From: a virus | Direction: 5' to 3' (one strand) | DNA length: 64,000 nucleotides | Virus record (IMG/VR): IMGVR_UViG_3300048903_000225 | Notes under the pieces: generated by a model | The model's database searches: none | The model's input: the letters and a program-made list of their open reading frames with translations, nothing else | What the model was told of the DNA's origin: nothing | Made by a program: the position numbers and the translations under genes | Part shown: positions 1-14,335 of the stretch, piece after piece | How the letters are laid out: each line of letters starts with the position of its first letter | Numbering within the stretch: position 1 is the first letter of the stretch

Positions 1-138
1 CCCTCGCCAGCTTGGCTACGTCCACGGCATGATGAATGGCTCCCGAACGCGGACCGGGAGACACGCGGCACCCAATGAAGCGGTGTCGCGTGCAGGAAGC
101 TCCATCAACGTGGTCCTAGCCAACAAAAGGAGACGCCT

Positions 139-219
139 ATGCCCGCGCCGGCCAAAACCGGCACCGCAAGCCAGCTTGCGGCAGGGAAGACCATGCGGAG
201 TGAGACCGCGCCACGATAG
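139..219 (+). CDS. Putative 26-aa micro-ORF (MPAPAKTGTASQLAAGKTMRSETAPR)
   Basis: AAAGGAG Shine-Dalgarno 6 nt before ATG139; stop TAG at 217-219. Confidence 0.35.
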   Translation: MPAPAKTGTASQLAAGKTMRSETAPR

Positions 220-269
220 GCAGATGGTAAGGCAGAATAGCGTCTGATGCCGACGCACACAGAGTATCT

Positions 270-391
270 AGCCCCTAAATGGCACCCGAAACCAAGTGCA
301 AGACCACGCTGCGCAAGTCACTGGTCTTAAACATTTAAGTCCTGATAAGACCTGAGCTGTGACTATACTGTCACAGCTCTAGCCTCATCAG
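270..391 (+). repeat. Structured composite repeat, copy 1
   Basis: AGCCCCTnnnTGGCACCCGAAACCAAGTGC (270-299), GTCCTGATAAGACCT (339-353), hairpin GAGCTGTGAC/GTCACAGCTC, TAGCCTCATCAG (380-391); same blocks recur in 501-725. Confidence 0.85.
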
Positions 392-399
392 GAGGTAAT

Positions 400-471
400 A
401 TGATCGACGACCATCAACGACATTTCGACGAGACCAGCCTGCATGTGTCGGCCCACGCCGGTAGCGCGTGA
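400..471 (+). CDS. Putative 23-aa micro-ORF (MIDDHQRHFDETSLHVSAHAGSA)
   Basis: GGAGG directly after repeat copy 1, ATG400, TGA 469-471. Confidence 0.4.
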   Translation: MIDDHQRHFDETSLHVSAHAGSA

Positions 472-500
472 TCATGCAGGGTGCGAAGGCCGTACATCAC

Positions 501-725
501 AGCCCCTGTTTGGCACCCGAAACCAAGTGCGAAGGGCGTTCCACCTGGTCCACGACGTATCCTACCGCCACAGCGCGGCTAGGCGTGAGTGGACAGCGTA
601 GGCTGACCCGAAATTTCTACCCGTCCTGATAAGACCTGACGGGCCTGCGAGCCAAAGCAAGCGCCCACGCCGTACTGAGCGTGGGTCGAGAATGCGGCAG
701 TATCAGACCCGTCTAGCCTCATCAG
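501..725 (+). repeat. Structured composite repeat, copy 2
   Basis: AGCCCCTgttTGGCACCCGAAACCAAGTGC (501-530), GTCCTGATAAGACCT (623-637), stem GACGGG/CCCGTC, TAGCCTCATCAG (714-725), then AAGGAG and ATG740. Confidence 0.85.
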
Positions 726-739
726 CCAAGGAGCATAAC

Positions 740-931
740 ATGCTGATCCACAAGGCTGTTTCCGGCAGCTATACCGGAATGGGTCCGACCCGCGCCGCGG
801 CGATGCAGGCGCTCCTCACCCAGCTCGACGTCGACTGCATCCCCGTCGTCACGATGCCGCTGCCCACGTTCTCCACCTGCGAGATCGTGCCGCACCGCGT
901 CGACAACATGATCGAGGTGATCCGTGTCTAA
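740..931 (+). CDS. Hypothetical early protein (63 aa)
   Basis: AAGGAG SD before ATG740; overlaps next gene. Confidence 0.65.
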   Translation: MLIHKAVSGSYTGMGPTRAAAMQALLTQLDVDCIPVVTMPLPTFSTCEIVPHRVDNMIEVIRV

Positions 932-1310
932 GCCCGAACCCACGTCGATCGACCACCACGTCCTTCGCAACGTCGAGCATATCGATAACACGAACGACCT
1001 GTGGCTCGCGGAGGCGACGCGCGCCGTGAAGAACCCCGGCAAGGGCGACTACATGGTCGTCCTCATCGGACCGGGCACGCACAACGACCGCCACACCACC
1101 TTCCTCGATGACGAGGGCAGCTACACGCTGCGCGGCTATCTCAAGCCGTTCGGCTTCCAGCGTTTCAAGGTCTCGGTCGAGTCGCCCAGCCGCAACTACG
1201 ACACGCCGTGGGTCGCCGCCCACCACGCCATTGTCTACGCGACCGACTTCGCCACGGCGCGCCGGCTGCTGATCGTCCTCGCGAAGGAGCTTTGCTATGA
1301 CAGAACTTAG
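924..1310 (+). CDS. Hypothetical protein
   Basis: 128-aa ORF with high GC3, overlapping neighbours. Confidence 0.75.
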   Translation: MSKPEPTSIDHHVLRNVEHIDNTNDLWLAEATRAVKNPGKGDYMVVLIGPGTHNDRHTTFLDDEGSYTLRGYLKPFGFQRFKVSVESPSRNYDTPWVAAHHAIVYATDFATARRLLIVLAKELCYDRT

Positions 1311-1785
1311 GCAGGGCAAGGGCGACACCCTTGTCAAGATCAAGGCGATCGGCAGCGGCTACCTCAATATCGACTCGCGCCGCATAGGCTATCCCATCAC
1401 AGTGCGCGTGGACGATGAGTTTTTGGAGTTCATCGCCTACAGTCGCTATGTTGATGGGGTCGTAGCGCGTGGTCCCCACAATGTGCTGACCTTCGAGAGT
1501 TGGCGCAACATGCCTAAGGGTACGAGCGAGCAATGGCGCAGCCAGTTTGACGCGATGCAGGCCCGCGCGATGCGCGCCGAAGAGCTGGGCATCAAGCTGC
1601 TCGATTTCGTCCTGCGCATCTCGGCATCCAACCCGGCCCACAACGCCAGCGCCGGTCTCGCAGCTCAGCTGCTCGAAGACCACGGCATCGAGCCGCGCGA
1701 GGGCTTCTTCCACACCCAAGACGCTGGCCTCGCCGACGCAAGGAGCAAGTTCTATGACGCTACACGTCCCCGACCGACTGGTTGA
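1297..1785 (+). CDS. Hypothetical protein
   Basis: AGGAG SD, 162-aa ORF in tandem array. Confidence 0.75.
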   Translation: MTELRQGKGDTLVKIKAIGSGYLNIDSRRIGYPITVRVDDEFLEFIAYSRYVDGVVARGPHNVLTFESWRNMPKGTSEQWRSQFDAMQARAMRAEELGIKLLDFVLRISASNPAHNASAGLAAQLLEDHGIEPREGFFHTQDAGLADARSKFYDATRPRPTG

Positions 1786-13752: not shown

Positions 13753-13763
13753 GGTGTGACATT

Positions 13764-13793
13764 TCCTCGGACCTTGGCGACAAGGTCCGAGGA
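13764..13793 (+). terminator. 13-bp perfect hairpin (GCGA loop) after rIIB; terminator or processing stem
   Basis: TCCTCGGACCTTG-GCGA-CAAGGTCCGAGGA then TTTG; weak U-tract. Confidence 0.5.
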
Positions 13794-13812
13794 TTTGTAT
13801 CTGGAGAACAAT

Positions 13813-14064: not shown

Positions 14065-14335
14065 CGAGCCGGCAATCATCGTCCGTCGTGGCAACAAGGC
14101 CACGCGGCACGGTGAGATCAAGCTGATGCACAAGGGCGAGGTAGTGGGCGTGTTCCACTACCAACCCCGCAACCCGCTGCCCTGCGGCGCCCGCGTGTGG
14201 CTCGAACTCGGCAAGGACGTCATCGCGTTCGAGGAAGAGGACGAGAAGCCCTGCGAGACCTGCGGCGGCACCCAGCTCATTCAGGCCGACCCCTACAACT
14301 TCGGGACGCCGGTCAGGTGCGGAGACTGCACATGA
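14000..14335 (+). CDS. Hypothetical protein with C-terminal CxxC...CxxC zinc motif
   Basis: IIHVAQDAIRRNAK...PLPCGARVW; CETC and CGDC. Confidence 0.7.
   Translation: MKKTIIHVAQDAIRRNAKLGTDEPAIIVRRGNKATRHGEIKLMHKGEVVGVFHYQPRNPLPCGARVWLELGKDVIAFEEEDEKPCETCGGTQLIQADPYNFGTPVRCGDCT

Follow-up and report, generated by a model that had tools for sequence, protein, structure and literature searches.

A small hairpin, P3, which precedes two small early genes of a soil phage of sphingomonad bacteria and recurs in related phages, is a real structured element that is uncatalogued in Rfam. It was located in a stretch of 64,000 nucleotides (the window; IMG/VR record IMGVR_UViG_3300048903_000225), for which a first-pass annotation had described two copies of a structured element of 120–225 nt each. 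The conserved unit was found to be smaller than this, consisting of the 3′ hairpin of each copy alone. P3 is most likely an mRNA processing or stability hairpin of the sense strand, a form of control of an ordinary kind in phages, with an internal loop whose invariance is unexplained.

The window belongs to a siphophage of 63% G+C with genes for a tape measure, tail protein J, rIIA, ribonucleotide reductase and DNA polymerase, the last of which is approximately 40% identical to the polymerases of Caulobacter phage Seuss, Achromobacter phage JWF and Xylophilus phage Lumi. An 8-kb IMG/VR contig (L001) is identical to window positions 1–800 and extends 7 kb further upstream, where it carries, on the same strand, a P4-type primase-helicase gene, small ORFs and a 167-aa ORF. 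The copies therefore do not lie at an end of the genome, and the ORFs downstream of them are not the first of their transcription unit, contrary to the earlier description of these as the first early ORFs. Gene callers leave 756 nt empty around the copies; within this space are two mini-ORFs with good Shine-Dalgarno sequences, at 139–219 (26 codons) and 400–471 (23 codons), which make each copy an element between cistrons. The early ORFs beside the copies had no match to any Pfam or PHROG family. In L039, a complete relative (Table 1), an ORF of seven codons (14244–14267) was observed at the place matching the window mini-ORFs; all of these could be leader peptides or chance ORFs.

Relatives of the primase found in bacterial assemblies all lie in Sphingomonadaceae, which is for this reason the likely host group. 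Those on contigs of Sphingopyxis, Sphingomonas and Sphingosinicella (L122–L125, L128–L130) are 49–67% identical. Several related records are labelled as provirus in IMG/VR, and part of the phage group may be temperate, or may have been carried along with the host in assemblies.

Using a repeat finder, the three sequence blocks that the first-pass annotation had reported as common to both copies were all located again: a 30-nt block at 270–299 and 501–530 (27/30 identical), a 17-nt block repeated identically at 339–355 and 623–639, and a 14-nt block repeated identically at 378–391 and 712–725. Each block occurs exactly twice in the 64 kb, even when two to three mismatches are allowed, with 0–0.3 occurrences expected by chance. 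Copy 1 (270–400) folds at −46.9 kcal/mol (z −5.6 against shuffled sequences); copy 2 taken whole is of ordinary stability (z −1.45).

Table 1. Coordinates of the two copies in the window, of neighboring features, and of the homologous elements of related phages (positions in the window unless a relative is named).
Feature	Position	Strand	Remarks
Block 1 of copy 1	270..299	+	exact repeat; small hairpin P1, 282–285 with 296–299, 10-nt loop (fold)
P2 hairpin of copy 1	300..328	+	300–306 with 322–328, 15-nt loop (fold)
AT-rich 14-bp palindrome CTTAAACATTTAAG	326..339		joins P2 to P3; only copy in the window
P3, short type, copy 1	341..392	+	lower stem 341–349/384–392, A.C mismatch 347/386; internal loop 350–353/380–383
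23-codon ORF after copy 1	391..471	+	Shine-Dalgarno GGAGG 391–395, ORF 400–471; skipped by the JGI gene caller; putative coding
Block 1 of copy 2	501..530	+	exact repeat
Variable middle of copy 2	531..622	+	long hairpin ~549–595, sequence unrelated to P2; AU-rich linker (fold)
P3, long type, copy 2	623..725	+	lower stem 626–633/718–725; internal loop 634–637/714–717
63-aa ORF after copy 2	729..931	+	Shine-Dalgarno AAGGAG 729–734, ORF 740–931; gene called in this phage's JGI contigs
Element of L039	14430–14581		complete 83-kb relative, primase 74% identical; single copy
Element of L049	5082–5134		Logan contig; short-type hairpin in a 58-nt gap; GGAG 2 nt after
Element of L084	21484–21543		primase only 51% identical, genome 55% G+C; same 7+7 invariant nt, new stems
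Element of L040	19118–19169		diverged, 18.9 bits, E 0.019; different loop, two-part hairpin kept

The P3 hairpin is built in two parts. Its lower stem is of 8 bp (8–10 bp across instances), with a mismatch fixed at the sixth position (A.C, A.C, C.U) that is followed by a G-C pair and sits two pairs below the internal loop. This loop is an invariant 4x4 loop, with ACCU opposite UAGC, bounded by G-C below and by invariant G-C and A-U pairs above. The upper helix is free in sequence and has 10–12 bp in total in every instance, with a cap consisting of either a loop of 4–6 nt or a branched insert of 64 nt. In copy 1, the upper stem (354–363 with 370–379) is closed by a hexaloop (364–369), and P3 folds at −28.2 kcal/mol (z −5.9 against shuffles). 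In copy 2, where P3 is of the long type, 6 bp (638–643 with 708–713) are followed by a C.A mismatch and 3 more bp, the total still being within 10–12 bp, and the 6-bp stem encloses the branched insert (644–707); this hairpin folds at −41.3 kcal/mol (z −3.5).

Much of this architecture had been anticipated by the first-pass annotation. The pairing that it proposed across a fixed loop is present as a lower stem CUGAUAAG/CUCAUCAG with one A.C mismatch, which brackets the loop of ACCU and UAGC. The stem said to be swapped between copies is a 10-bp stem in copy 1 and a 6-bp stem around the 64-nt insert in copy 2, and the copies do end at a Shine-Dalgarno sequence and a start codon (ATG at 400 and at 740). 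A further helix, proposed from a variable triplet (AAA or GTT) with a covarying partner, forms in copy 1, where UAAAUG (276–281) pairs with CAUUUA (332–337), and is unsupported outside it: in the minimum-energy fold of copy 2 the proposed partner is taken by a stronger helix, and no partner was found in the stretch of the L039 homolog that was inspected.

To extend the comparison, relatives were gathered by protein similarity, because pattern scans gave very little. Exact and relaxed scans of IMG/VR matched only the 8-kb contig of this same phage and L039, the scan of JGI metagenomes gave L039 again and one chance match (L044), and scans of species genomes for P3 gave no match. A blastn search of 50,697 phage records gave no real match to the element either. 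In all, P3 was identified at six places in five phages, namely twice in the window phage and also in L039, L049, L084 and the diverged L040. A covariance-model search, as suggested in the first-pass annotation, recovered copy 2 of the window, L039, L084 and L040, with pairs that covary among the homologs. Copy 1 scored 74.6 bits and copy 2 scored 39.9 bits (E 1e-8), and the matches in relatives had E values of 6e-6 (L039), 6e-4 (L084; 1.08 Mb searched) and 0.019 (L040).

The orientation of P3 is that of the flanking genes in all six instances, and in the conserved cases (window phage, L039, L049 and L084) it lies in an intergenic gap. The hairpin adjoins the Shine-Dalgarno sequence of the next gene (GGAG or AGGAG), which follows the stem by 0–10 nt (~6 nt in L040) and which five of the six hairpins do not include. 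The lower stem contains the stop codon of the upstream ORF in both L049 and L084. Five instances, from four phages, have the same seven plus seven nucleotides around the loop, whereas both stems vary freely. Between copy 1 and L049 all 17 pairs are kept, seven of them with both sides changed, and sliding of the partner strand reduces pairing to 29–43%. Between copy 2 and L039, both sides have changed in 5 of 25 consensus pairs, some of which are within the insert. Across four sequences of the basal stem, pair 10–106 is A-U or U-A and pair 13–103 is A-U, C-G or G-C, with the position next to the latter mismatched in all four. Coming from only four independent lineages, this covariation is good qualitative evidence to which no statistical value is attached.

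The element is sporadic among relatives. Approximately 55 related phage records, 14 of them at least 90% complete, were without P3. Of these, 50, including 13 with a completeness of 90% or more, were without the short-spaced GACCTGA...TCTAGCC hairpin. The loop motif was absent at both spacings from the complete genome of L040 and from L038, L041 and L042, and the covariance model run with filters off on the five closest element-free relatives gave only noise (12 bits or less). Copy number is two in the window, one in the complete 83-kb relative and zero in 14 near-complete relatives. A search for a partner gene common to the P3-carrying phages found none; the neighbors of P3 are small orphan ORFs which differ in every phage. 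With regard to host mimicry, a GACCTGA...TCTAGCC hairpin with a gap of 8–38 nt was absent from five Sphingomonadaceae genomes, in which a reversed control matched a few times.

At one gap, following the same small membrane-protein gene, two-part hairpins followed by GGAG were also observed in L040 (19118–19169), L050 (439–484) and L053 (1579–1629). These have a lower stem, an internal loop of 2–4 nt and an upper stem of 10–12 bp and are unrelated in sequence, so that at this gap the hairpin architecture is more conserved than the sequence.

With regard to known RNA families, the earlier statement that the element belongs to none of them was borne out. Rfam searches gave only tRNA and tmRNA for the whole window, only miRNA-like hairpin noise for window positions 1–1500 at E values up to 10 (22 bits, with 96 required), and no match at the homolog loci at E values up to 1. 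Of the functions that had been offered for the element, a cis-acting structured RNA on the coding strand is favored by the compensatory changes, the orientation in all six instances and the G.U pairs on the sense strand, whereas nothing was found in support of a ribozyme, for which even the most permissive Rfam search gave no match. The hammerhead has a core of CUGANGA and GAAA around three stems. The minus strand of the window copies reads CUGAUGAG, but no GAAA follows the stem, CUGAUGA is lost in L039, L049 and L084, and no hammerhead family was detected in the Rfam scans of window and homologs. Sites for single-stranded DNA of the integron attC or IS200 type were considered and rejected, as the GTTRRRY/RYYYAAC cores are missing from the hairpin by eye, and there was no recombinase or transposase family match near the copies. 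A sigma-54 promoter at TGGCAC of block 1 was likewise rejected, by eye, with GC located 15 nt after GG and not 10. Scans for sigma-70 promoters and terminators found nothing conserved.

The reading that we favor, tentatively, is that P3 directs processing or stability of the sense-strand mRNA in the manner of T7 R1.1. The latter hairpin, of 60 nt, separates early genes 1.0 and 1.1, contains an internal loop of 4/5 nt and is a substrate of RNase III (PMC6121014). Starting from what was observed of P3, namely the hairpin with its covariation and invariant loop and the way in which it is placed and oriented, this model supposes transcription through the hairpin, its cleavage and the identity of the nuclease. 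P3 would sit in the sense mRNA of the early operon, in the gap between cistrons and 0–10 nt before the next ribosome-binding site, and would form two helical turns interrupted near the middle (a lower helix of 8–10 bp, the internal loop and an upper helix of 10–12 bp). An endonuclease specific for double strands, for which the host RNase III is the simplest candidate, would nick the RNA in or beside the internal loop, upon which the upstream RNA would retain a protective 3′ hairpin and the downstream cistron would begin with a short unstructured leader bearing its Shine-Dalgarno sequence. In substrates with an internal loop, RNase III makes a single cut, and the 3′ hairpin that remains guards against exonucleases (PMC1540722). 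An enzyme that gauges the length of a helix would agree with the constant 10–12 bp of the upper segment, and the unrelated two-part hairpins at the homologous gap in L050 and L053 support the model.

The likeness to R1.1 extends to size (~50–60 nt), to the two helical segments and to the loop (4/5 nt in R1.1, 4/4 nt in P3), and the two-turn, split hairpin of such signals is present in all five conserved instances of P3. R1.1 is located between cistrons of an early mRNA, shortly before the next ribosome-binding site, and the same is predicted for P3 from the same-strand ORFs around it. However, P3 has no sequence relation to R1.1, its cleavage is only predicted, and it has one to two sites per genome with none in most relatives. 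The absence of P3 from about 55 related records indicates that it is dispensable. There is also no excess of two-part hairpins in the window (11, against 5–10 in shuffles), which argues against a genome-wide processing system like that of T7, with its ten processing sites. Also against the model stands the loop, around which the 7+7 nt are invariant among distant phages, even in L084 with a primase of 51% identity. Such invariance points to sequence-specific recognition, which RNase III, to our knowledge, does not need, and it is unexplained by the generic recognition of this enzyme. Furthermore, the host of P3 is alphaproteobacterial, and RNase III of this group acts differently on R1.1, that of Sinorhizobium cutting it atypically and preferring longer duplexes, so the rules derived from Escherichia coli may not hold (PMC6121014).

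Owing to the invariance of the loop, the rarity and dispensability of P3, the lack of a hairpin excess and the differing RNase III of a rhizobium, the main rival is a phage or host RNA-binding protein that reads the ACCU/UAGC loop specifically, with P3 as its operator controlling translation or decay of the downstream gene. This would account for a constant loop between freely varying stems, for the fixed mismatch two pairs below it and for the short distance from the hairpin end to the ribosome-binding site, and an apical part that varies, even to the extent of a 64-nt insert, is what would be expected if only the basal part is read. We nevertheless consider it somewhat unlikely, as no candidate protein emerges among neighbors that differ in each phage and early ORFs without Pfam or PHROG family, the Shine-Dalgarno sequence is outside the hairpin in all but one instance, and L040 has lost the loop sequence yet keeps the two-part hairpin. 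It is less probable still that the functional fold is on the other strand, either in an antisense RNA over the ribosome-binding site or in a hairpin of the template DNA with a role in replication, priming or as a hairpin promoter. The minus strand does fold better in five of the six instances by about 9–17 kcal/mol (copy 1, −37.5 vs −28.2; copy 2, −58.2 vs −41.3; three others, −37.4 vs −29.0, −43.8 vs −35.0 and −33.0 vs −24.3), because nearly all non-pairs of the plus strand are A.C, which are G.U on the complement, where the P3 loop reads G.U, C-G, U.G, A.A. However, the G+U-rich minus strand gains 1–5 kcal/mol by composition alone (shuffle means), and A.C is the only mismatch that one transition makes from a Watson-Crick pair, from which a loop selected on the plus strand would also look rich in A.C. 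In L084 it is the plus strand that folds better (−34.3 vs −31.7 kcal/mol), with two U.G pairs in its lower stem; L049 has a G.U pair on the plus strand, and the fixed mismatch of L039 (C.U on plus, A.G on minus) is unpaired on both. No U-tract follows the minus-strand hairpin in copy 2, L049 or L040, and an antisense promoter conserved downstream is ruled out by the sequences after P3, which are unrelated in each case. Together with the orientation of the genes, these observations favor the plus strand.

Turning to readings in which P3 is chiefly a mobile or transcriptional element, we regard as improbable that it is mainly a recombination cassette, with intergenic blocks serving as crossover points that shuffle small accessory genes. 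The precedent is the promoter-stem-loop cassette (PeSL) of T4-type phages, conserved intergenic stem-loop blocks located before small orphan ORFs of a variable early region and showing chimeric exchange (PMC2839356), which P3 resembles in its identical blocks around unrelated inserts in the window copies, in the chimeric element of L039, in its changing neighbors and in its sporadic occurrence, which includes the phage with 51% primase identity. PeSLs, however, combine a strong sigma-70 promoter with a terminator hairpin and number about 50 per genome, whereas the sole promoter-like match for P3 is private to the loop of copy 1, with no conserved promoter consensus and no U-tract after the hairpin, and the one to two copies per genome reported above are far from this number. 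Covariation and an invariant asymmetric loop indicate selection on the folded strand, which recombination alone would not need; a role in recombination is compatible with the mRNA-processing reading, and the two may coexist. We think it very unlikely that P3, with P1 and P2 in this phage, is an RNA of the HK022 put type, which acts by binding the zinc-binding domain of the RNA polymerase beta-prime subunit and suppressing termination (PMC9378689), and which would here antiterminate across the early operon. The putL and putR elements are also two similar structured and covarying cis-acting elements of ~70 nt in early transcripts, with stems, bulges and indents and, in most phages, without catalogued relatives (PMC9378689), and such elements are sporadic among related phages; the two copies of the window lie near the start of the early operon, and in L039, L049 and the window phage an AT-rich region that resembles a promoter precedes P3 by 0.8–1.3 kb. 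Yet put is a V-shaped pair of stem-loops (~70 nt in all) right after the early promoters of two divergent operons, whereas P3 is one hairpin, with tandem copies in one operon and homologs between coding regions, and in L049 and L084 the single hairpin is wedged between coding sequences. The L084 element is also 6.5 kb from the AT-rich region, and neither sequence likeness to put nor downstream terminators to be overcome were identified. A bolder and rather doubtful reading is that of P3 as a mobile, sequence-specific recognition module, the invariant asymmetric loop of which would be read by a phage or host factor on RNA or template DNA. In sphingomonad phages the module would move from one intergenic site to another and place the following gene under a new control, such as factor-independent antitermination or a defense decoy.

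If the mRNA-processing reading is true, P3 would provide an RNA processing or stability signal for a large, unstudied group of ~80-kb siphophages of Sphingomonadaceae. It opens no long-standing question; the RNA motif is new and tidy, and its type is a familiar one. Its core is small and sharply defined, and the invariance of the loop across phages with primases of 51% identity points to a specific partner that is worth seeking. The chimeric copies show how short structured blocks can move between the gaps before small accessory genes.

In the two window copies, identical blocks flank wholly unrelated inserts. These look like products of recombination between hairpins of this kind, a reading based on the single element of L039, which has the 5′ half of copy 1, with P2 and the palindrome, followed by a hairpin of the long type in which the 64-nt insert matches the one in copy 2. 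The 5′ parts of the window copies (block 1 with P1, P2 and the AU-rich linker) are lineage-specific leader sequence. Block 1 had no match in about 80 relatives (up to 3 mismatches, blastn-short) and was seen only in this phage, and the middle part of copy 2 had no homolog in the relatives searched; the P2 helix is kept between copy 1 and L039 (14433–14466 region) through one exchange of C-G to A-U. These parts may add a second layer of control, with the palindrome as an operator, for example, or with a site of the RNase E type. The palindrome CTTAAAYRTTTAAG was also observed at four to five sites each in L038, L039 and L040, on both strands; in relatives these sites precede or overlap start codons, apart from one that lies within the 167-aa ORF and encodes LKCL. 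It is probably the operator of a dimeric regulator. Between the two copies, an 8-bp inverted repeat (CCTGCATG ... CATGCAGG, with a 27-nt loop, 437–479) spans the stop codon of the 23-codon ORF.

The AT-rich region referred to above is a non-coding stretch of ~300 bp on L001 (6130–6450), about 0.5–0.85 kb upstream of window position 1. It has four repeats of the TACCGGGTA type, which are inverted, are of 15 nt, and flank and interrupt it. Corresponding stretches were observed in L039 (13650–13780), L040 (18090–18200), L049 (4250–4360) and L041 (14810–15170), on the opposite side of the 167-aa ORF. The stretch resembles either a replication origin or a cluster of early promoters and operators. 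Elsewhere in the window, a perfect hairpin of 13 bp that is unrelated to P3 occurs in an intergenic position at 13758–13801, directly before GGAG and ATG, and may be a terminator or a stabilizer.
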